The notes under the pieces were generated by a model, which was not told the origin of the DNA, made no database searches, and was given only the letters and a program-made list of their open reading frames with translations. This document shows, one piece after another, positions 27,243-43,698 of a DNA stretch of 64,000 nucleotides (position 1 is its first letter; each line of letters starts with the position of its first letter). Source of the DNA: Thermoanaerobaculia bacterium. Lineage in GTDB: Bacteria; Acidobacteriota; Thermoanaerobaculia; Multivoradales; JAIOJS01. Position numbers and translations under genes: made by a program. Location: positions 49,581-113,580 of the forward strand of contig DASYQD010000117.1 in NCBI GenBank assembly GCA_036005845.1. The letters run 5' to 3'.

Positions 27243-27818
27243 ATGCTGTGGCAACATGTGGCCTTCCGCCGGGAACCAGACTTGCCGCGAAAGCCGCCGC
27301 TCGTCGTCCGTTGCTCGCTCGTGCTCGCGCTCACGAGCGCCGCTGCCGCGTTCGCCGGCACCTCGACGGCGCCCAACCCGGTCGTCACCTTCAGCTCGCC
27401 GGGCACGAAGCAGGTGTCGCTGCAGGCCTGCAACAGCGGCGGCTGCAACACCGTGGTCAAGTCGGTGTCGGTGCTCGACCCGATGCCGGCGGTCACCAGT
27501 CTCCTCGCCACCCCCAACCCCGTCGTCCAGGGCGACACCGTCCATCTGACGGGTGTCGGCAATGGCGCGCCGCCGCTGACCTTCAACTGGCGCATCCTCG
27601 ACCCCGGCGGAACGCAAGTGGCGACATTCTCTGGCGCCAGCGCCGACTGGACCGTCAACGTCGCGCCCGGCGTCTACTCGGTCTACCTCGACCTCGGCAA
27701 CTCGCATGGTGTGCAGACGCCGCAGCCGGCGCCGGTCGTCGTGCTCATCACGCCTTTCATCTTCAGCGACGGCTTCGAGCAGGGGAACACCAACCTCTGG
27801 CTCAGCCCGCCGCCCTGA
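27243..27818 (+). CDS. Secreted PKD-domain protein with C-terminal IFSDGFEQG..W tag
   Basis: Hydrophobic signal ending AAFA. NPVVTFSSPGTKQVSLQACN and LTFNWRI PKD motifs; ends FIFSDGFEQGNTNLWLSPPP. The start may be slightly later. Confidence 0.7.
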   Translation: MLWQHVAFRREPDLPRKPPLVVRCSLVLALTSAAAAFAGTSTAPNPVVTFSSPGTKQVSLQACNSGGCNTVVKSVSVLDPMPAVTSLLATPNPVVQGDTVHLTGVGNGAPPLTFNWRILDPGGTQVATFSGASADWTVNVAPGVYSVYLDLGNSHGVQTPQPAPVVVLITPFIFSDGFEQGNTNLWLSPPP

Positions 27819-31871: not shown

Positions 31872-32417
31872 ATGGACGACGACGCGCGGCTCATCGCCCT
31901 GCTGCTCGCCGGAGACGACGCAGCCATCGCCGAGGTGCGTGGCTGGGTCGCCGCCGCCGTGGGCCGCTATCGCGCGCGGCTCCTCGGCGACGCCGAGGAC
32001 CTCGAGCAGGAGGCGCTGCTCGACTTGATGGAGTCGCTGGCAAACGGCCGCTTCCGCGCCCAGAGCCGGCTCGCCACCTACGTCCACTCCTACGCCCGGT
32101 TCAAGTGCATCGACCGCCTGCGCACCCTCGGCCGCCGCGACATGGTCGAGCTCGACGACGAGGCGCTGCACACGGCGGCGCCATCGCCGCTCGAAGAGCT
32201 GACGCAGCGCGAGAGCGCGGAATTGGCGCAGCGGGTCGTCGCCGCGCTGCCCGCGGGCTGCCGGGAGCTCTGGGAGATGATCGCCGACGGCATGTCCTAC
32301 CAGGCGATGAGCGCGGCGATGGGCGTCGGCGAAGGCGCCATCCGCGTGCGCGTCCACCGCTGCCGGCAGCGGGCGCTCGCCATCCGACTGCGGCTGCTCG
32401 CCGGAGAGGACCTGTAA
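31872..32417 (+). CDS. ECF RNA polymerase sigma factor
   Basis: Region 2 DAEDLEQEALL...CIDRLR; region 4 MSYQAMS...GAIRVRVHRCRQ. Confidence 0.9.
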   Translation: MDDDARLIALLLAGDDAAIAEVRGWVAAAVGRYRARLLGDAEDLEQEALLDLMESLANGRFRAQSRLATYVHSYARFKCIDRLRTLGRRDMVELDDEALHTAAPSPLEELTQRESAELAQRVVAALPAGCRELWEMIADGMSYQAMSAAMGVGEGAIRVRVHRCRQRALAIRLRLLAGEDL

Positions 32418-32446: not shown

Positions 32447-33151
32447 GTGAAGGCACCCCTTGCCGTGACACCCTCCACGCCCGAGCCCTGCCGCCTCACC
32501 ACGCTGGCGCTGCCGTGGCTGCTCAACGGCAGCCTGGCGCCGGCGGAACGGTGCGAGGTGCGCGAGCACCTGATCCACTGCCCGAGCTGCCGCGCCGAGC
32601 TCGAGCGGACGCGCGAGACGCTGGTGGTGTTCCGTGCCGCCGCGGCGGCGACGGAGCAGCCGCGCGTGGCCGCGGCCGGCGCGACTCGGATCGCCAGCCG
32701 CGGCAGGGTGCTGCGGCCGCTGGCCTGGGCGGCGATGGTCGCCGCGATCCTGGGAAGCGCGTGGCTGGCGCGGACGTGGGTCGCCGGGCCCACGCCGATG
32801 CGCAGCGCCGAACGGCAACGGCAGGCACCGCCGTCCGCGCCAGCGGTCACGACGCCGGTGCGCATGGCCAGCGTCGCACCACTTGCCTCGCCGCCGCCGT
32901 CCGCCGCTCCGGTCTCCGCGTCGAGGCCGTCCGCGAGCGCCGCGCGGCCGCGGCGGCGCGCCGACAGCCACACCGCGGCGCCCACGCGTCCCGAGGTGAT
33001 CTCCGTGGCCAGCTTCGAGAACGGCACGGTCGCGTCGACGAACGGCGAGGTCGAGGTCGCGCCCGCCAGCTCGAAGATCTCGACGGTCGACTTCGAGAAC
33101 GGCGAGCTTGCCGGCAGTCAGATTCATGCCATACCTGGACGGATACAATGA
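32447..33151 (+). CDS. ZAS (zf-HC2) transmembrane anti-sigma factor with duplicated C-terminal FENG motif
   Basis: LPWLLNGSL...EHLIHCPSC (HxxxCxxC). One TM (LAWAAMVAAILGSAWLA), a Pro/Ala linker, then ISVASFENG and ISTVDFENGEL. Start is 32447 or 32465. Confidence 0.8.
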   Translation: MKAPLAVTPSTPEPCRLTTLALPWLLNGSLAPAERCEVREHLIHCPSCRAELERTRETLVVFRAAAAATEQPRVAAAGATRIASRGRVLRPLAWAAMVAAILGSAWLARTWVAGPTPMRSAERQRQAPPSAPAVTTPVRMASVAPLASPPPSAAPVSASRPSASAARPRRRADSHTAAPTRPEVISVASFENGTVASTNGEVEVAPASSKISTVDFENGELAGSQIHAIPGRIQ

Positions 33152-33198
33152 GGCCGAATCACCGGCCCAAGACGACGAGAATCACGAGGAGCTCGACC

Positions 33199-34779
33199 AT
33201 GCGTAGTGTCCTTCGTTCCACCGCCACGGCCGCCGCGCTGCTGCTGGCCGGCGCCAGCGGCCTGCTGGCCAACTCGATCGCGGTGCAGCCGGGCCGCCAC
33301 GGCGGTACCTGCGGCGTCAACAACACCAACAACGACCGCTACGGCGGCAACTGCGGCGCGCGCGTCACGCTCGACACCGGCGCTGCGCCGTTCGCCTACG
33401 TGCAGGACAACACGCCCTCGGGCGAAGGCGCTTACCGCGTCCGCTTCTACGTCAACACCAGCACGATGGCGTTCACCGCCGGCAGCTTCGACGTCTTCGC
33501 CGCCTACGATCCGGTGAGCGATCCGCCGGCCGGCAGCTCCGCCGGCACTCCGGTGCTGCGCGCCCAGCTCGGCAGCGGCAACCCGCGCGTGCTCAACGTC
33601 TTCGGGTTGCTCGACGCCGGCGGCGAGACGGCGATCGGTCCGTTCTCGATCGCCAGCGGCTGGCACGCCATCGAGATCGAGTGGACCCGCGCCGGCGCCG
33701 GCCAGAACAACGGCCACCTCAACCTCTGGCTCGACGGCGTCGCGCAGACCGGCACCAACGGCCTCGACAACGACACCCACACCATCAACACCGTCCGCTG
33801 GGGCTACGTTTCCGGCAGCCCGACGTTCAGCGGCCGCCTGCTGATCGACGAGTTCGCCTCGCAGCGCACCGGCCAGATCGGGCTCGTCCCCTTCACCGGC
33901 CAGCAGATGGCCGCCGACTTCGACGGCGACGGCGACGGCGACGTCGTCCTCGAGCGCAACGGCTCGTGGCTGTTCTACGACTACGCCACCGGCACCCTCG
34001 CCAACACGGTTGCCCTCGGCAGCGGCGGCTCGTGCATCCCCACTCCGGGTAACTACGACGGCGACTTCGACAGCGACATCTCCCGCCTCTGCTCGGGGGC
34101 GTGGCACTTCTACAACGCCAACGGCAGCTACGCGGGCGGCATCTGGACCGGCTCGCCGCCGGACGTCTATCCGGCGCCGGCGGACTACGACGGCGACGGC
34201 GACACCGACGTCGTCATCTTCGACAACGGCGCCTGGCACTTCTTCGCCTATCCCGGCGGCGCCTACCTCGGCGGCTACTGGACGGGCGGCTCCAACAGCC
34301 AGGTGCGTCCGGTGCCGCTCGACTACGACGGCGACGGCGCGGCCGAGCTCAGCCTCTACGGCCAGGGCGCCTGGCACTTCTTCAACGACAACGGGACTTA
34401 CAACCACGGTATCTGGATGGGCGACACGCCGGGCAACATCCCGGTGCCGTTTGACCGCGACGGCGACGGCGACGAGGACGCGGTGCTGTTCAACAACAAC
34501 AACACCTGGCACTTCTTCGACTTCGCGACGGGCGCCTACCAGGGCGGGGTGATCACGGCGCGCCCGGGCGGCGGCTCCTACACCAACCCGCAGCCGGCGC
34601 CGGTCGACGTCGACGGTGACGGCCACATGGAGCTGAGCGTCTACGAGGTCGTCGGTGGCAACGGGTTCTGGCACTTCTTCTCGAGCACCGGCACCTTCCT
34701 GAAGACGATCAACACCGGCGCCGCCAACAACGACAATCCGATCTCGCGCCGGTTGCGCGTGGCGTCGCCCGGCATCTAG
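33199..34779 (+). CDS. Secreted protein: jelly-roll/LamG-like N-terminal domain plus six-repeat DYDGDG propeller
   Basis: GAGGAG RBS and signal peptide. AYVQDNTP..YRVRFY..WHAIEIEW..LWLDG..LDNDT..VRWG..DEFASQR, then six DxDGDG/GAWHF repeats ending NPISRR. Confidence 0.8.
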   Translation: MRSVLRSTATAAALLLAGASGLLANSIAVQPGRHGGTCGVNNTNNDRYGGNCGARVTLDTGAAPFAYVQDNTPSGEGAYRVRFYVNTSTMAFTAGSFDVFAAYDPVSDPPAGSSAGTPVLRAQLGSGNPRVLNVFGLLDAGGETAIGPFSIASGWHAIEIEWTRAGAGQNNGHLNLWLDGVAQTGTNGLDNDTHTINTVRWGYVSGSPTFSGRLLIDEFASQRTGQIGLVPFTGQQMAADFDGDGDGDVVLERNGSWLFYDYATGTLANTVALGSGGSCIPTPGNYDGDFDSDISRLCSGAWHFYNANGSYAGGIWTGSPPDVYPAPADYDGDGDTDVVIFDNGAWHFFAYPGGAYLGGYWTGGSNSQVRPVPLDYDGDGAAELSLYGQGAWHFFNDNGTYNHGIWMGDTPGNIPVPFDRDGDGDEDAVLFNNNNTWHFFDFATGAYQGGVITARPGGGSYTNPQPAPVDVDGDGHMELSVYEVVGGNGFWHFFSSTGTFLKTINTGAANNDNPISRRLRVASPGI

Positions 34780-35203
34780 CCAAGCGGCGAGCCCTTCGGT
34801 CCCGCAGAGCTCTCGCCCGCAGCGGCGCTGGCCCTCCAAGCCGGCGCCCTGCGGGCGATTCTGGTTTTGGTCAGGGCAGCATGCGGCGCGAGATCGGGCG
34901 ATCGGTGCTGGCGGCGCCGGTGTTGACGGTGCGCAGGAAAGTGCCGTTGACCGAGAAGAAGTGCCAGAAGCCGGTGCCGCCCACCACTTCGTAGACGCCC
35001 AGCTCGGGCTTGCCGTCGCCGTCGAGATCGAGCGGCGCGGGACGGGGGTTGGTGTAGGCGCCGCCGCCGGGCCGCGGCGTCATCACGCCGCCCTGGTAGG
35101 CGCCGGTCGCGAAGTCGAAGAAGTGCCAGGAATTGTTGTTGTTGAACAGCACCGGGTCCTCGTCGCCGTCGCCGTCACGGTCGAACGGCACCGGGATGTT
35201 GCC
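34432..35203. repeat. Long imperfect inverted repeat formed by the 3' ends of two convergent propeller genes (arms about 34432-34751 and 34883-35203)
   Basis: Near-identical coding stretches such as GNIPVPFDRDGDGDED.VLFNNNN.WHFFDFATGAYQGGV, with long exact nucleotide matches. Confidence 0.85.
34813..34868 (+). terminator. Long hairpin with T-rich tail between the convergent genes
   Basis: TCGCCCGCAG (34813-34822) and CTGCGGGCGA (34849-34858) plus an inner GC stem, followed by TTCTGGTTTT. Confidence 0.65.
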
Positions 35204-35713
35204 GGCGGTGTTGCCGACCCAGATGCCCTTGAGGTAGCTGCCGTTCTCGTTGAAGAAGTGCCAGGCGCCCAGCGAGTAGAGGCTCTTGTCGGTGAAGCCG
35301 TCGCCGTTGAAGTCCAGCGGCACCGGCACAGCGCTGGGGTCGCTTCCCGTCCAGCGGCTGCGCGCGCTGTCGTAGGTGCCGGTGGTGTAATTGTAGAAGT
35401 GCCAGGCGCCGGCGTCGAAGAAGACGACGTCGGTGATGCCGTCGCCGTCGTAGTCGGCAGGCACCGGGAAAGCGCTCTGCGGCGCGCCCGTCCAAATGCC
35501 TTTGATGTAGCTGCCGTTGGCATTGTAAAAGTGCCAGGCGCCGGAGCAGAGCTGCGCGAAGTCGATGTCGCCATCGCCGTCGAAATCGCCGGGGGCCGGG
35601 ATGCAGGTGGGCCCGCCGCCGGTGACGATCGACTGCGCCCAGGCCGGCGACGCGGCGACGGCGAGCGATGCGGCGGCGAGCAGCCAGAAGCTTGCGAGGC
35701 GCAGTGGTCTCAT
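34871..35713 (-). CDS. Secreted five-repeat DYDGDG propeller protein lacking repeat 1
   Basis: GGAG RBS, ATG 35713, signal peptide MRPLRLASFWLLAAASLAVAASPAWA. Starts at the Cys-containing repeat 2 and ends RPISRRMLP. Confidence 0.85.
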   Translation of the reverse strand: MRPLRLASFWLLAAASLAVAASPAWAQSIVTGGGPTCIPAPGDFDGDGDIDFAQLCSGAWHFYNANGSYIKGIWTGAPQSAFPVPADYDGDGITDVVFFDAGAWHFYNYTTGTYDSARSRWTGSDPSAVPVPLDFNGDGFTDKSLYSLGAWHFFNENGSYLKGIWVGNTAGNIPVPFDRDGDGDEDPVLFNNNNSWHFFDFATGAYQGGVMTPRPGGGAYTNPRPAPLDLDGDGKPELGVYEVVGGTGFWHFFSVNGTFLRTVNTGAASTDRPISRRMLP

Positions 35714-35727
35714 CGTGACGTCTCCGC

Positions 35728-37296
35728 TCAATCGCCCGGCCACAGCGGGAACTCGATCCACGCGCCGGCGCCGCGGTAGACCCAGACCTCGGCGCGGCCG
35801 TCGCCGTTGAAGTCGCCCGCCGGCGCGTTGCGGCGCCGGTGGCAGGTGGTCGAGAGGCCGGCGACGAAGGCGTTCATCCGCGCCGACACGCGGTTGGGCT
35901 GGTTGCCGTAGGGGTGCGGCACGCCCGCCGCGGTGGCGCCGAAGGTCAGGCTGGTGTTGCTCATGAAGCTCGGCGCGATGTTGTGGCAGTAGCTCATGAT
36001 GGTGCCGTTGCCCTGGCCCTGCACGCCGCAGTTGGCGGTCCCCAGCGACGGCACGCAGGTGGCGCCGGAGTAGCAGGCCTGCAGCGTGCCGTTGACCGAC
36101 ATCTGCTCGCCCGAGGAGCAGCGGTCGACCTCCTGGCCGGCGCCGAAGAGCACGTTGTAGCAGTGGGTGTGCGGCGAGTTGAAGTTGTGGCCGATCTCGT
36201 GCGTGGCGCCGAGCAGGTCCCAGTTCACGGCGTTGGGGTTGGCGGGGTTGAAGGTGCCGCTGATGCCCATGGTGACGCCGTAGCCGCCGCCCCATTGGCC
36301 CGCGGCGCAGGTGCCGCCGGCGCTGAAGTCGGCCGAGCAGAGGACGCCGATCCAGGCGATTCCGGCGGTGGTGCTCTTGCCGCTCAGGAAATGAACGGTG
36401 CCACGCGGGAACGTCGGCCGGTTGGTGTGCCACCAGGTGCCGAGCTCGCACAGCGCCGTGGATGGGCTGGTGGCGGTCCAGGGATCGCTGGTGGTGGCGC
36501 CGGTCCACGCCGAGACCAGGTTGACGCGCAGCGTGGTGTTGACGTCGCGGTAGTAGATGGCCGACATCGCGCCCATCAGGTCGCCGATGTAGGCCGCCAT
36601 GGTGTCGACCGAGCCGAAGCGGTTGAACAGCTCGACGTCGGTCTCGATGGCGACGGTGATCGAGTAGAGCGCGGCGGCCTTGTCACCGGGCGCCGCCGGC
36701 TCGAAGGGAGCTGCCTCGGCGCCGGCGCCGAGCTCGTCGAGAGCGGTGGCGGGGACCGGCAGCGCGTCGGCGTCGCACTCGAAGCCGCGGGCGTCGGGCG
36801 CCGCGTCCGCCGCCGCCTTGGCGATCAGCGGCTCGCCGGCGAGGGCCGCGTCCGCGGCTCCGAGAACGTACGTCGCGCCGTCGGCGATGACCAGGCCGCG
36901 CACGTCCCCGGCCTCGCCGACGGAGAGGAAAGCCGTCGAGCTCGGATCGCCTTCGACGCCGCCCCGGAAGAACGTCCGGTTCGGCACCGCGTGCGTTGTC
37001 ACCTTGCTGCCGTTCTCGTGCACCACCACAACGGCGTCGGGCGTGAAGAGCTCGAAGCGTTCGAGGGTGAGGGCCACCTGGCGCTCTGCCAACGGCACGC
37101 CGGCGACGCGCAGGCCGCCGTCCACCGGCACTTGCCGCGCGCGGGCGGCGAGGGTTTCCTTCGGCAGCGTGAAGCTGAGCCGCATCTGCGCCGTCTGCGC
37201 GCCGGCGAGCGCGGGGCTCAGCGCGGCGAGGACGACCCAGAGGAGCGTCCAGGCCCGGCGGCGGCCCGTCCCGAGCCGGGGACGTCTAGGTGGCAT
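35728..37296 (-). CDS. Secreted M12/reprolysin-like zinc metalloprotease ending in a single DFNGDG repeat
   Basis: AGGAG RBS, signal peptide and prodomain. VAIETDVELF, GIAWIGVLC and HEIGHNFNSPH zinc motif, GTIMSYC Met-turn; C-terminus AGDFNGDGRAEVWVYRGAGAWIEFPLWPGD. Confidence 0.88.
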   Translation of the reverse strand: MPPRRPRLGTGRRRAWTLLWVVLAALSPALAGAQTAQMRLSFTLPKETLAARARQVPVDGGLRVAGVPLAERQVALTLERFELFTPDAVVVVHENGSKVTTHAVPNRTFFRGGVEGDPSSTAFLSVGEAGDVRGLVIADGATYVLGAADAALAGEPLIAKAAADAAPDARGFECDADALPVPATALDELGAGAEAAPFEPAAPGDKAAALYSITVAIETDVELFNRFGSVDTMAAYIGDLMGAMSAIYYRDVNTTLRVNLVSAWTGATTSDPWTATSPSTALCELGTWWHTNRPTFPRGTVHFLSGKSTTAGIAWIGVLCSADFSAGGTCAAGQWGGGYGVTMGISGTFNPANPNAVNWDLLGATHEIGHNFNSPHTHCYNVLFGAGQEVDRCSSGEQMSVNGTLQACYSGATCVPSLGTANCGVQGQGNGTIMSYCHNIAPSFMSNTSLTFGATAAGVPHPYGNQPNRVSARMNAFVAGLSTTCHRRRNAPAGDFNGDGRAEVWVYRGAGAWIEFPLWPGD

Positions 37297-37392
37297 GGTG
37301 AGTGTCTCCTGGGCGATCAGCATCGAGCCAAACTCTTCACACCGCACAGCCAGCAGAATGCGTACCAGCAGCCGCTCTAGAATGGGCAACGC

Positions 37393-40223: not shown

Positions 40224-43200
40224 TTACGGAGTCACGGCCGACCAGGGCCGATTGCCGGCCTCGAAGCCGTTGACGAAGAGCTCAACGCTCTCGAGATCGA
40301 AGTCGATGCCGTCGACCAGCGCGTCGTGGCTCGCGACCGCGATCGGCGTGCCCTTGGTGGGATCGCACAGACCCTGATATGCCGGCCCCTGCGGACACGG
40401 CAGGTTGTTCCACACCTCTTCCAGCGCGCCCATCCCACTGTCGGTCGAGGCATAGTAAGTTCCCGGATTGGGCACGAAGTGATAGCCCCCCTGAGGCCCT
40501 GTCAGGGTGCTGTCGACGTGCTCGCCGGCGGCGTCCCAGAGGTCGATGGCGACCCCAGACAAGGGATGGCCGTGGTCGGTCACGCGTCCGTCGATGCCGC
40601 GTGCGTACGAGAGCACGAAATCGATGTTGGCCGTCGTGTTCCCTGTCGTCACGACCACCGGCGTGCCGGTGGTTACGTCGCAGGAACCGAGGCAGCGAAT
40701 CCCTGAGTAGAGCTGGCCGACGAGCTCCGACCCACCGTAGGCGACCAAGTACCAGGTCCCGGGCTCGCTCGGGAGCTGGTAGTGGCCTCCTGCGTCGGTG
40801 GAGGCGTAGCCGCGATATTGGCCGGTGGCGTTGTAGAGATAGATCGTGACGTAGGGCGGCGTGGTTCCGCTGGTGTCGGTGACCAAGCCGGTGATGACAC
40901 CGGACTGTGAGAGCCCGAAGTCGATGGCCGTTGTAACGGTACCGAGCGTTACCGGGATCGGTGTCCCGGCGGTCGGGTTGCAACTTGCGCTGGGGCAGGG
41001 CAAATTGTTGTAGAGCTCGGCATCGTATTGGTTGTTGTACGGGTAGGAATCCGCGACCGCGAAGTAGTTACCCGCGTCGAGGCCGTTGACCTGATACGTG
41101 CCGTTGCTCGCGCTGTAGGTCGAGGCGACCAGCGTGCCGCTGCTGTTGTAGATCCAGACATACGAAGAAGGCAGCGGCGCCGACGTCACCGCGTCGCGAA
41201 CGGTACCGGCAATTCCCCCCTTGCGCACGAGGGCGAAGTCGATTCCCGCGGTCGGCGCGCCCAAGCTGACGGCGACGCTCGTGCCGTTCGCCGGGTTGCA
41301 GCCCGTCGGCGCACCACCGGGACAGGGGATGTCGTCGTAGAGCTCGTCGATGAACTCGTAGCTCTCGGCCACGACGAAGTAGTTGCCGGGCACGAGACCA
41401 TAGATCTGGTACGTGCCGGTGTTGCCGCTATAGGTGTAGCCCACGAAGTTGCCGGAGCTGTCCCACACCTCGACTTCGACGCCGCCGGCCGGTGCACTCG
41501 AAGCATCGGTGACCGTGCCGGCGATGCTTCCGAGCGTCGTCAGCGCGAAGTCGATGCCGTTGGTGTCCGCATCCAGCACTACCGACACGGGAGTCCCGGT
41601 CGTCGGATCGCAAGTCCCCAGGCAGGGGATGTCGTCATATAGCTCACTGCGATAGTAGTAACGGCTGGCACGCACGTAGTACGTGCCAGGGAGCAGGCCG
41701 GTGGCCGAGTACGAGCCGCCGTAGGAGTAACCGTAGGCAACGTAGGTGCCGGCCGCGTTGTAGATATCGACATAGGAATAATCGGACAGGGGATCGCCGG
41801 TGACCGCGTCCGTCAAGTGGCCCGAAATCGAGCCCAGCTTCCGCAGCGCGAAGTCGATCCCACCGGTGGTGTGATCGAGAGCCACGGAGAACGCGGTGCC
41901 GCCGGCGACGTTGCACGAGGGCTCGCAGGGCACGTCGTCGTAGAGCTCGTCCAGGTACCCGCTCCAGGTCTGGCTGGTTGCGTAATACGTTCCTGCGTTC
42001 AACCCGCCAGCCAGGTATTGGCCCGCTGCGTTGGTGTAACCGTATGAACGCTGAGAGCCTTGCGCATCCAGGATGTCGACCCGTGCATAGGTGATCGGCG
42101 CGCCGTCGGCGACTTGCGTGACCGTCCCGGCGACGACTCCGAACCGGTCGAGAAAGAAGTCCACGCCGGGAGTCGTCTGTCCGTCGGCGACCGGAATCGG
42201 CGTTCCATTCGTCATCGTGCAGCTCGGCACGCACGGGATGTCCTGGTAGAGCTCTCGGCGATACTCCGAGTTGGAGGAATCGCCGGCAACGGCGAAGGCC
42301 GTGCCGCCGGCGAGGCCGCTTACCAAGTAGCGGCCCGCCTGGTCCGTCTCCGCCATGGCGGCCAGCCCGCCGTTGGCGCCGTAAACGGCTACGTCGGCGT
42401 AGGGAAGAGCCGCGCCGGTGGCAGCATCGCGAACGCGGCCCGCGACGCTGGCGCCGTGTCCGAGCGCGAAGTCGATGCCGGTGTGAACGGCGCCGCTCTG
42501 AACCACGATCGGTGTCCCGGTCGTCGGCGTGCAGCCGGATGGAGCTCCGCCAGCGCACGGGATGTCGGCGTAGAGCTCGTCCAGGAAGCCGTCGGGATAG
42601 TAAAAGTCGCCTTGCGTCGAGGCGTAGTACGTACCAGGGCTCAAGCCGAGGACCAGATAGCTGCCGTCGCCGGCCGTGTAGTCATACCCGGCGTAAGAAC
42701 CGTTGGCGTTCCAGACCTCGACGTAGCGGTCGACGAGCGGCCCCGCGGTTGCCTCGTTGGTGACGGTGCCCGAGATCCCGGCCGAGCCACCCTCGATCTG
42801 TATCGTGGCGGTGCCCGTCGCCTGCTCCCAGCCCCGGGTGCGGATCCAGGTGGTCTCGCCGGCGGCGACGCGAAGGACGGTGCGGCCTTGCAACCCGACC
42901 TCGTCGTCGCCGTGAGCGCGTGGGGTGCCGCTGGATCCAGGGCAAGCATCGAACCAATCGACGACGGTGTCGAAGTCGGACCCGGCAGTGCTGACCACCG
43001 CCATGCCGCCCACCTTGGCCGTGTAGCGAAGCCAGATCTCGCCGCTGGTGCCGTCAGCGCGCCGGACGACCTCGCCCTGGTAGCTGCCGTCCACGACGTC
43101 GATGGCGCTGGCGCAGCTCGCAGCCGCGCCGGCATCGAACACGGTGGCGGGCTGCCGCGGCTCCCAAAACGAGGTCGGCGAGCTCGGCACGCTGCTGGCG

Positions 43201-43610
43201 CGCTCCCGGCTCTCCACCTCGCGGAGAAGGGGCATCAGGACCCCCGCCTTGCGGGCCAGGTCGCGCCCTTCCGCCGTCATCTGCTTCCTGGCTGACTCAC
43301 GCAGCACGTCGGCGAGATCCCTGAGCTCGGCTGTCTTTGCACCAGCTTCTGGAAGCTGGCGGGTCTCAGGACGCGAGATGGTGTTCAGTCGTCGACGCAG
43401 CAACCGCTCCAGGCGCCAGATCGCATCGCGGAGCGCTACGTGCTCGCTGCTCGACGAGTCCTGCGCGGCGGACGCCTTGGGCGCGGGTTGCGATGCCGTC
43501 GTGGACCGGGCGGTCTCCGTCGCGGCCCCGTCGGCCATGCCCGGTGATACCGCGGCGGCGATGAGAATGATGCCAGCCACGGCCGCCCGGCGAAGTTCAG
43601 TTGGAAACAT
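40224..43610 (-). CDS. Large secreted protein with eight carboxypeptidase-regulatory-like (prealbumin fold) repeats and C-terminal LFVNGFEAG..W tag
   Basis: Signal peptide, helical segment and PPC-like domain. Eight ~100-aa repeats (GxIxGxVxD...GxYxxxGLxPGxY...ELYxxIPC...C...GTPxxV...IDFxL); ends LFVNGFEAGNRPWSAVTP. Confidence 0.85.
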   Translation of the reverse strand: MFPTELRRAAVAGIILIAAAVSPGMADGAATETARSTTASQPAPKASAAQDSSSSEHVALRDAIWRLERLLRRRLNTISRPETRQLPEAGAKTAELRDLADVLRESARKQMTAEGRDLARKAGVLMPLLREVESRERASSVPSSPTSFWEPRQPATVFDAGAAASCASAIDVVDGSYQGEVVRRADGTSGEIWLRYTAKVGGMAVVSTAGSDFDTVVDWFDACPGSSGTPRAHGDDEVGLQGRTVLRVAAGETTWIRTRGWEQATGTATIQIEGGSAGISGTVTNEATAGPLVDRYVEVWNANGSYAGYDYTAGDGSYLVLGLSPGTYYASTQGDFYYPDGFLDELYADIPCAGGAPSGCTPTTGTPIVVQSGAVHTGIDFALGHGASVAGRVRDAATGAALPYADVAVYGANGGLAAMAETDQAGRYLVSGLAGGTAFAVAGDSSNSEYRRELYQDIPCVPSCTMTNGTPIPVADGQTTPGVDFFLDRFGVVAGTVTQVADGAPITYARVDILDAQGSQRSYGYTNAAGQYLAGGLNAGTYYATSQTWSGYLDELYDDVPCEPSCNVAGGTAFSVALDHTTGGIDFALRKLGSISGHLTDAVTGDPLSDYSYVDIYNAAGTYVAYGYSYGGSYSATGLLPGTYYVRASRYYYRSELYDDIPCLGTCDPTTGTPVSVVLDADTNGIDFALTTLGSIAGTVTDASSAPAGGVEVEVWDSSGNFVGYTYSGNTGTYQIYGLVPGNYFVVAESYEFIDELYDDIPCPGGAPTGCNPANGTSVAVSLGAPTAGIDFALVRKGGIAGTVRDAVTSAPLPSSYVWIYNSSGTLVASTYSASNGTYQVNGLDAGNYFAVADSYPYNNQYDAELYNNLPCPSASCNPTAGTPIPVTLGTVTTAIDFGLSQSGVITGLVTDTSGTTPPYVTIYLYNATGQYRGYASTDAGGHYQLPSEPGTWYLVAYGGSELVGQLYSGIRCLGSCDVTTGTPVVVTTGNTTANIDFVLSYARGIDGRVTDHGHPLSGVAIDLWDAAGEHVDSTLTGPQGGYHFVPNPGTYYASTDSGMGALEEVWNNLPCPQGPAYQGLCDPTKGTPIAVASHDALVDGIDFDLESVELFVNGFEAGNRPWSAVTP

Positions 43611-43698
43611 GAGGGCTCTCCAGAGATAAGGCACGAAAACGTCATGCAGCCGATCAGTGGGCCGCGAACATAGGACGGACTACTTTCGGGGTCATGCC

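Follow-up and report, generated by a model that had tools for sequence, protein, structure and literature searches.

In cohesin-dockerin systems of the cellulosome type, a short C-terminal module is carried by varied secreted enzymes, and its receptor sits on a separate scaffoldin with three SLH repeats. Donor-strand complementation is likewise an established class of mechanism. In archaeal cannulae (CanA/CanX/Hyper2) and in TasA and AbpA, a jelly roll receives its strand A in trans, and this strand inserts between strand B and the last strand without the help of a chaperone (bioRxiv 10.1101/2024.12.30.630787). Here we describe a candidate docking pair in a 64,000-nucleotide stretch of DNA (hereafter the window) from a Thermoanaerobaculia bacterium (Acidobacteriota; GenBank assembly GCA_036005845.1, contig DASYQD010000117.1, positions 49,581 to 113,580 of the forward strand). 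The gene at 33199-34779 (+) encodes a secreted protein whose N-terminal jelly-roll domain (hereafter the socket) lacks the first strand of its family, and other secreted proteins, in the window and in related genomes, end in a segment of about 15 residues (hereafter the tag) that has the profile of the missing one. Tag and socket are probably functional partners, and we lean, by a small measure, towards a split-domain docking pair that works by strand complementation. Loci and representative proteins are given by our L and P numbers where they have to be told apart.

The N-terminal domain of the 33199-34779 protein lacks the first strand of its family

The open reading frame (ORF) at 33199-34779 (+) starts with an ATG at 33199, preceded by a GAGGAG ribosome-binding site, and its translation gives a product of 526 residues. 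This product opens with a Sec-type signal peptide (33199-33270 (+); MRSVLRSTATAAALLLAGASGLLA, then NSIAV) in whose translation we found no lipobox cysteine; all relatives have the same layout. A domain of ~210 amino acids follows (residues 25-234; 33271-33900 (+)), characterized by profile search, AlphaFold2 (AF2) modelling, Foldseek and comparison of N-termini. The strings by which an earlier reading of this DNA, made from the sequence alone (hereafter the sequence-only reading), had recognized the domain (AYVQDNTP, YRVRFY, WHAIEIEW, LWLDG, LDNDT, VRWG and DEFASQR) are all present in the translation. The remainder of the protein, up to the stop codon, consists of six FG-GAP/VCBS-like blades with DxDGDG motifs (33910-34779 (+); PF13517, 8.2e-12), a count made by pattern plus one blade (GNYDGDFDSD) that the pattern missed and that we added by eye; a closed beta-propeller of this kind typically has 7. 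The blades stand where most relatives have three SLH repeats.

Searches of Pfam and NCBIfam gave no match on the socket domain, nor on the tag tails alone. Two AF2 models of the socket protein had a mean predicted local distance difference test score (pLDDT) of 74.7 and 76.8; in the latter, most of the domain exceeds 90. Both show the domain as a two-sheet jelly roll. A Foldseek search of the PDB with the AF2 model returned as best matches lyases of families PL20, PL36, PL14 and PL7 and the lectin-like domains of neurotoxin Hc (2zzj, E = 1e-7; 6kzk, 5gmt and 8q2a, ~2e-6; TM-score up to 0.63), placing the socket domain in the concanavalin-like two-sheet jelly-roll fold of the PL20 type. At the level of sequence, the window protein has no match at the PF14099 gathering threshold (29.9 bits), where ordinary relatives score 17-31 bits and only P0074 passes, and a PDB search with the domain profile gave noise only (E ~0.6), with no sequence relative of known structure.

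A word-indexed search had found only five relatives; a profile search with the domain then gave 3,075 representative proteins, mostly large multi-domain proteins with tandem copies of it. The sequence-only reading had stated that this domain begins elsewhere with an IFADGFESG..W strand, and it does: in ordinary copies the segment I-F-x-D-G-F-E-S-G-x-L-S-A-W, or the variant form (I/L)-F-x-D-G-F-E-S-G-x-(L/F)-S-x-W, precedes the domain at a fixed distance. Using the pattern [GSDNA][FYLV][ED]x[GSND..]x(3-5)W on the domain copies in the 150 best matches, we scored the strict upstream motif in 179 of 254 scorable ordinary copies, many of the remainder being degenerate, and in 115 copies the Trp of the motif lies exactly 16 residues before profile position 14. 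The N-terminal ~40 residues of ordinary copies, motif included, match weakly the very start of the CBM_4_9 and PF14099 profiles, consistent with the motif segment being the first strand of the sandwich.

Side by side, the ordinary copies read IFADGFESGDLSAWSxxxTDGG-DLSVSxxAAxxGxYGLQA..YRARFY, whereas the window protein and about 30 other family representatives read as a signal peptide ending in A, followed by GTLTVQAGSKHAGSFGLEV..YRVRFY or by NSIAVQPG... In the window protein the mature chain starts with NSIAVQPG, which aligns with the strand next after the motif in ordinary copies (...SAWSxxxTDGG-DLSVS...), so that, as the sequence-only reading had supposed, the mature protein begins downstream of the motif position. 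In the window protein and the ~30 other representatives, the signal peptide takes the exact place of the motif-bearing segment. Two of the checks suggested with that reading came out in its favor, Foldseek finding a jelly roll and the alignment of homologues confirming the missing segment, and most ordinary copies do carry the motif at their start. The window socket has one strand fewer than its complete homologues, as is characteristic of the acceptor fold in donor-strand systems.

C-terminal tags have the profile of the missing segment

Two secreted proteins of the window end in a tag, and in both cases the tail lies where the sequence-only reading had reported an IFADGFESG-type ending. A PKD-domain protein of 191 amino acids (27243-27818 (+), identified by Pfam and translation), which has a signal peptide, carries FIFSDGFEQGNTNLW at 27756-27800 (+), 5 residues before its stop codon; the full tag reads FIFSDGFEQGNTNLWLSPPP (27756-27815). 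On the opposite strand, a protein of ~1,130 amino acids with a signal peptide and eight CarboxypepD_reg repeats (40224-43610 (-), within the ORF 40224-43634) ends in ...ELFVNGFEAGNRPWSAVTP directly before the stop, with the tag LFVNGFEAGNRPWSAVTP at 40227-40280 (-), and its orthologue in locus L009 ends in ...RIFKSGFESGDGAWLFSP and a stop. The motif GFE.[GN] occurs three times in the six-frame translation of the window, and only these two occurrences are in long ORFs, each 14-15 residues from the stop. Dinucleotide shuffling of the window leads one to expect 0.015 matches to a strict C-terminal tag pattern; the actual sequence has 3, one of them a loose false match. The eight-repeat protein also has a match of 36.6 bits to NCBIfam TIGR04183, the type A sorting domain of the type IX secretion system (T9SS). 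This match is internal (residues 821-859, in one CarboxypepD_reg repeat), and because it is not at the C-terminus it is not to be read as a T9SS signal.

We compared 44 tags gathered here with 183 ordinary N-terminal segments at features that lay outside the tag search pattern, namely the I, F and D positions and the spacing from G to W. At positions -4, -3 and -1, respectively, I is present in 63% of tags and 68% of ordinary segments, F in 88% and 86%, and D in 75% and 89%. A G-to-W spacing of 9 is found in 171 of 183 ordinary copies and 32 of 44 tags. The tag profile correlates with that of the ordinary N-strand at a mean per-position r of 0.81, compared with at most 0.16 in shifted register. 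The tag, in other words, has the profile of the segment that the socket domain lacks. As with the donor in donor-strand systems, the strand that matches the gap is a terminal extension on a partner polypeptide, here at the C-terminus. Gly/Ser or poly-Pro linkers often precede the tag, which ends 1-9 residues after its Trp.

Tag genes mostly lie directly upstream of socket genes

The linkage set comprised 29 loci from a one-genome-per-species scan, all from Thermoanaerobaculia or Acidobacteriota, plus the loci of the first five relatives. An upstream ORF was available in 31 non-redundant loci (Thermoanaerobaculia genomes or similar metagenome contigs), and the sockets of the set form 10 clusters at 70% identity. 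In 27 of the 31 loci, the next upstream ORF on the same strand ends in a tag. The gap between tag ORF and socket ORF ranges from -14 to +293 nucleotides (nt) and is mostly below ~110 nt; overlaps of 4 or 10 nt between tag stop and socket start depend on the ATG chosen, as public gene calls start the socket 39-52 nt downstream. The remaining four loci have a longer-tailed tag (L028), a tag ORF ~350 nt upstream (L036) or a degenerate anti-sigma tag (L003 and the window). The flanks contain 42 genuine tags among 1,698 long ORFs, all of them within 10 kb of a socket gene.

The upstream-tag arrangement extends to two distant sockets (34-36% identity). In L100, whose GC fraction (GC) is 0.50, the upstream ORF ends in ...LFIDGFETANTSAWISVQQ and a stop, 22 nt before the socket. 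In L102, a secreted protein of 241 amino acids ends in ...IIFRNGFDSGNDAAWRSPA and a stop, 84 nt before an SLH-bearing socket, and a pair of extracytoplasmic function (ECF) sigma and anti-sigma genes also lies upstream. Two further distant loci, L099 and L101, both on short contigs, have no tag. We reject a pseudogene or an assembly artefact as an explanation: stop codons, break-point signal peptides and tags are conserved across the 10 clusters, and an independent assembly agrees with the window over 32900-33400.

Tag and socket subtypes vary together

The window socket carries an insert, RHGGTCGVNNTNNDRYGGNCG (33295-33357 (+)), between domain strands one and two, bracketed by Cys38 and Cys52 and of low pLDDT in both AF2 models. 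This insert is shared by P0001 and P0002 and by the sockets of L009-L016, L019, L028, L031 and L032, and is absent from GTLTV-type sockets. Tags that accompany Cys-insert sockets have at least 4 residues after the Trp in 16 of 21 cases (for example ...PGPWSGKTP-stop and ...LWLSPPP-stop), whereas those that accompany insert-less sockets stop one residue after the Trp (...SWQ-stop) in 23 of 24 (Fisher p = 7.6e-7, uncorrected for phylogeny).

The sequence-only reading had cautioned that the Cys insert might fill the groove in place of a tag. Across the family this is unlikely: insert-less sockets exist, and insert-bearing sockets still have tagged neighbours, with longer-tailed tags, which argues against the insert as a replacement for the strand. 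In the window protein itself, the insert may nevertheless fill the groove.

Loci with an NSIRVPNG-type socket encode two tandem M12 proteases, and hence two tag subtypes for one visible socket (L014 6584-8182; L032 6554-8158; L045, L055, L059, L061, L084 and L098). The first protease has a Gly-rich and then a poly-Pro linker and ends in ...LPFSDGFESGTMGSW(H/Q)-stop; the second ends in ...FxDGFEGGxxPGxWSGKTP-stop.

The tag is portable and conserved

The proteins that carry tags are reprolysin-like M12 proteases (the majority), S8 subtilases, CAP-family, PKD and CarboxypepD_reg proteins, and zf-HC2 anti-sigma factors. Within families the tag is conserved: of 120 M12 homologues, 89 have it, and for the homologues of the window PKD protein the figure is 27 of 31. 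Where it is absent from these two families, its place is taken by an FG-GAP propeller, by a module ending in ...IDVNGYFQ-stop or by nothing, and the L002 homologue of the PKD protein has SLH repeats there. The alternative module is ~100 amino acids long, ends in ...GTIGVQN.S.G..HVIIDVNGYFQ-stop or ...VIDVSGYY-stop, and replaces the tag in both the protease family (P0163, P0166, P0168-P0170 and P0179) and the PKD family (P0302, P0303 and P0305). The precomputed Pfam lists call no family for it; it may be an alternative anchoring or binding module. A set of 21 of the 120 M12 homologues (P0217-P0273) stops at ...NP(A/S)CLAP-stop, right before the position of linker and tag. These may be naturally tag-less (free) forms, or may reflect effects of gene calling or contig ends.

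The CLAP-ended proteases would fit a different account, in which the strand-less domain binds a glycan by itself, as a lectin, a carbohydrate-binding module or a degenerate lyase, and the tags are neutral leftovers of a domain that was lost or split. The resemblance of the fold to polysaccharide lyases, sialidase carbohydrate-binding modules and galectins, and the confident modelling of the domain without its strand, are in line with that account as well. We nonetheless consider it very unlikely. A relic would decay, yet the 15-residue tag is conserved, in the proportions given above for the M12 and PKD families, among homologues of 44-99% identity, and it occurs in at least 4 unrelated carrier families. 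In addition, poly-Pro or Gly/Ser linkers precede the tag, and every socket has gained a signal peptide of its own just where the domain was broken.

Most sockets carry three SLH repeats (PF00395 on P0003-5, P0011 and most relatives). The window protein and its L009 orthologue have six FG-GAP blades instead, and P0001 and P0002 have one. Genes for pyruvyl-transferases (PS_pyruv_trans, CsaB-like) lie within 6 kb of SLH-type sockets in two unrelated loci (L002 15666-17765 and L102 13337-16006). Their proximity is consistent with a pyruvylated wall polymer, which two papers give as the ligand of SLH repeats (PMC6030368, PMC6081394).

The identity of the carriers also bears on the idea of a socket that serves only co-encoded proteases, as an escort or inhibitor that holds their C-terminal tail for latency or for hand-over during secretion, and is not a general scaffold. 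It is true that most adjacent carriers are M12 or S8 proteases, whose genes come immediately before that of the socket, probably with co-translation. However, PKD proteins, CarboxypepD_reg repeats, CAP proteins and anti-sigma factors carry tags too, the SLH or FG-GAP fusions point to anchoring and not to transient escort, and the protease next to the socket gene in the window has no tag. A role restricted to escorting proteases is therefore highly improbable.

A split-domain docking model and the evidence against it

From these observations we infer that tag and socket bind each other, how they would do so and that the socket serves as an anchor. The N-domain of the 33199-34779 protein would be the receptor half of a two-part module derived from a split concanavalin-like (PL20/CBM4_9-like) jelly roll. 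In the Thermoanaerobaculia lineage of the window, the first-strand segment would have been transferred to other Sec-secreted proteins, at whose very C-terminal end it forms the tag, and the rest of the domain would be exported separately, behind its own signal peptide, as the socket. After export, the tag may fill the place of the missing edge strand, next to the first strand (SIAVQ / TLTV) and the last strand (LLIDEFASQR) of the socket, a contact that would amount to non-covalent donor-strand complementation as in jelly-roll filament subunits. Cargo would thereby be tethered to whatever the socket is fused to: SLH repeats, and with them the cell wall, in most relatives, and a six-blade FG-GAP propeller in the window. 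Within the window, the PKD protein and the eight-repeat CarboxypepD_reg protein would be the likely cargo, perhaps joined by the adjacent anti-sigma factor through its tail. Because donor and acceptor are on different proteins, a 1:1 docked heterodimer would be the expected product, and not a polymer.

Several results weigh against this model. For AF2, we tethered the PKD tail to the window socket through the natural 40-amino-acid Pro/Ala/Ser linker of the anti-sigma factor and supplied an alignment of 28 socket homologues. In the resulting model the tag was undocked, at pLDDT 31-43 and with no strand; the run gave the tag no alignment depth and covered one topology with no scrambled control, so it does not disprove docking. 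AF2 also folds the socket confidently, mostly at pLDDT >90, when no tag is present. In the window, the clear tags lie at some distance from the socket gene (5.4 kb on its upstream side, 5.4-6.4 kb on its downstream side) and not next to it; the gene directly upstream has only a degenerate, Trp-less tag, and the adjacent M12 protease is tagless. The co-variation of tag and socket subtypes amounts to 5 versus 4 clusters at 70% identity and may reflect a single evolutionary event. A search for an unsplit ancestor found the complete domain in cis on 0 of the 120 best M12 homologues, which leaves the fission event undocumented.

Metagenomes give a further point of this kind. In a reverse scan, we searched metagenome contigs for DNA that encodes F-x-[DN]-G-F-E-x-G-x4-W-[QH]-stop and obtained 61 loci (L038-L098), 53 of them true ORF ends. 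Forty of these tags have at least 500 nt downstream, and a socket comes next in only 9, all of the Thermoanaerobaculia type; ~45 other tag contigs (GC 0.45-0.75) have no socket on the contig. Co-occurrence of the two elements, a check suggested by the sequence-only reading, is seen when one starts from sockets, with a tag upstream in 27 of 31 loci, but mostly not on the contig when one starts from metagenome tags. The socket-less tags end DUF11, GEVED, Calx-beta, S8, He_PIG and unknown secreted proteins. The distribution of the tag is thus much wider than that of this socket family, and the socket-less tags either have partners elsewhere in those genomes or have an additional, independent role. 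We reject a phage origin of the tag, as the whole viral collection gave one match (L103).

These findings bring forward the main rival to docking, in which the tag acts on its own as a C-terminal signal (for sorting, secretion or processing, or for some other partner) that unrelated machinery reads, and its linkage to sockets reflects co-regulation or shared ancestry. The many unrelated secreted proteins that carry a tag with no socket nearby would be expected if this were so, as would the tag that AF2 did not dock, and the W-Q/H-stop ending is strikingly uniform, like a recognition signal. Even so, we judge such a signal to be unlikely. The tag has no transmembrane helix or basic tail and matches no curated sorting-signal model, and no conserved candidate processing enzyme recurs in the loci. 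It matches exactly the segment absent from the neighbouring domain, and its subtype tracks that of the socket. The contigs of the reverse scan are also short, and a socket may lie elsewhere in the genome. For the proposal of the sequence-only reading that the tag is a donor strand captured by truncated acceptor domains, the outcome is mixed: profile identity, linkage, portability, conservation and the SLH fusions favor it, whereas the undocked tag of the AF2 model and the socket-less majority of metagenome tags do not.

Neighbourhood of the socket gene in the window

The window comes from a soil-metagenome contig, and its closest genomic relatives are all metagenome-assembled genomes of Thermoanaerobaculia (Acidobacteriota). 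The socket gene is the third of a string that begins with an ECF sigma factor (31872-32417 (+); Sigma70_r2/r4_2 on the JGI gene call) and continues with a zf-HC2 anti-sigma factor directly upstream of it (32447-33151 (+)), an order common to L003-L006, L009 and L016. The extracytoplasmic tail of the window anti-sigma factor (32996-33148) has two tag-like motifs, VASFENGTVAS and VDFENGELAGS, both without Trp. Its orthologues end in ...ADFENGELTWQ-stop (L009) and ...VDFETGHLGAWR-stop (L016), and both match PF13490. Compared with L009, the window gene has one base missing in the Trp codon and a tail that is 15 residues longer; an independent assembly of the same soil run is identical to the window over 32900-33400. 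Beyond these cases, zf-HC2 anti-sigma factors upstream of FG-GAP-type and some SLH-type sockets have one or two terminal tag-like motifs (SFE[SN]G..., DFE[NT]G.L..W), with tails of this kind in the window (32996-33151 (+)), L009 (8745-9839), L016 (9177-9809) and L003 (748-1470).

The tag-like tails, together with the tags of the orthologues, raise the possibility that the socket also reads the anti-sigma tail. A broader scheme would make the IFxDGFExGxxxxW tail a general strand-tag code in several bacterial phyla, with strand-less sockets as its receptors. Cargo and anti-sigma tails would then compete for the socket, and the cell could in this way sense the occupancy of its surface docking sites and adjust the ECF sigma regulon. 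We regard this broader scheme as quite unlikely.

Two genes on the opposite strand follow the socket gene. The first encodes a secreted protein of five FG-GAP blades that is a paralogue of blades 2-6 of the socket protein (34871-35713 (-)). The second encodes a reprolysin-like M12 metalloprotease (35728-37389 (-)) that has one short FG-GAP-like end blade (GDFNGDGRAEVWVYRGAGAWIEFPLWPGD, ~35731-35817) instead of a tag; relatives of this protease are the commonest tag carriers in other loci. The sockets P0001 and P0002 end in a single blade very similar to this terminal blade, and the window socket protein appears to have arisen when a P0001-like gene was fused to a five-blade gene. The blades add up to 7, the usual propeller size, both in the window (6+1) and in the L003 type (1+5+1; L003 1543-2355). 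These sums hint at a second plug-in mode in the same locus, by blade complementation.

Discussion

If the tag binds the socket, the pair would be a new bacterial way to assemble extracellular machinery, in which a 15-residue tail docks any secreted protein on an SLH-anchored or propeller partner. A widespread but unannotated C-terminal motif of proteases and adhesin-like proteins from soil and sediment metagenomes would then have an explanation, as would the way in which the abundant, uncultured Thermoanaerobaculia hold proteases at the cell surface. The pair would also provide a natural, minimal, non-covalent tag-and-catcher system for protein engineering, and the tag-ended anti-sigma factors would open a direct way to test whether surface occupancy is linked to gene regulation.

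Our searches of curated models, solved structures and the literature returned no description of the tag, of the strand-less subfamily or of their linkage; the literature search found no paper with the tag motif and none linking Thermoanaerobaculia with SLH. As far as we found, no heterologous tag-and-socket docking pair from a split jelly roll is known. Cannulae, TasA and AbpA come close in that the element absent from the socket and present on its partners is likewise the first strand of a jelly roll. Their donor and acceptor, however, are on one subunit, which gives homopolymers, whereas here the cargo is heterologous and bears the donor at its C-terminus, with the acceptor on an anchor protein of its own. 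None of the socket proteins starts or ends with a tag, as a same-subunit polymer would require. There is no sequence relationship between those proteins and the tag and socket, and it is by analogy that strand insertion would occur here.

In chaperone-usher pili, too, an incomplete beta-sandwich in the cell envelope is completed by a strand of another polypeptide. That sandwich is an Ig-like fold without its C-terminal strand, the donor is an N-terminal extension, and assembly depends on a chaperone in the periplasm and an usher in the outer membrane; the called genes of the locus include no PapD or usher family. The closest structural match to the socket is among the PL20/PF14099 and CBM4_9-like jelly rolls (2zzj), from which the socket differs by its absent first strand. 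As a short conserved C-terminal element on unrelated secreted proteins, the tag resembles sorting tags such as LPXTG, PEP-CTERM, GlyGly-CTERM, MYXO-CTERM and the T9SS C-terminal domain. It differs from them in having no hydrophobic helix, basic tail or dedicated sortase-like gene, and it gave no NCBIfam match at the C-termini.

In function and layout, the proposed system resembles cohesin-dockerin pairs, with which it has in common an SLH-anchored scaffold and one C-terminal module on diverse proteins (M12, S8, CAP and PKD), the window socket having FG-GAP blades instead of SLH. When the socket, the cargo proteins of the window and ten tag carriers were scanned with Pfam, neither dockerin (PF00404) nor cohesin (PF00963) appeared. 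The tag has ~15 residues, compared with the 60-70 residues of the Ca-binding dockerin, and its cargo consists mainly of proteases and not of glycoside hydrolases. The proposed contact would complete a single fold, whereas cohesin and dockerin interact as two folded domains.

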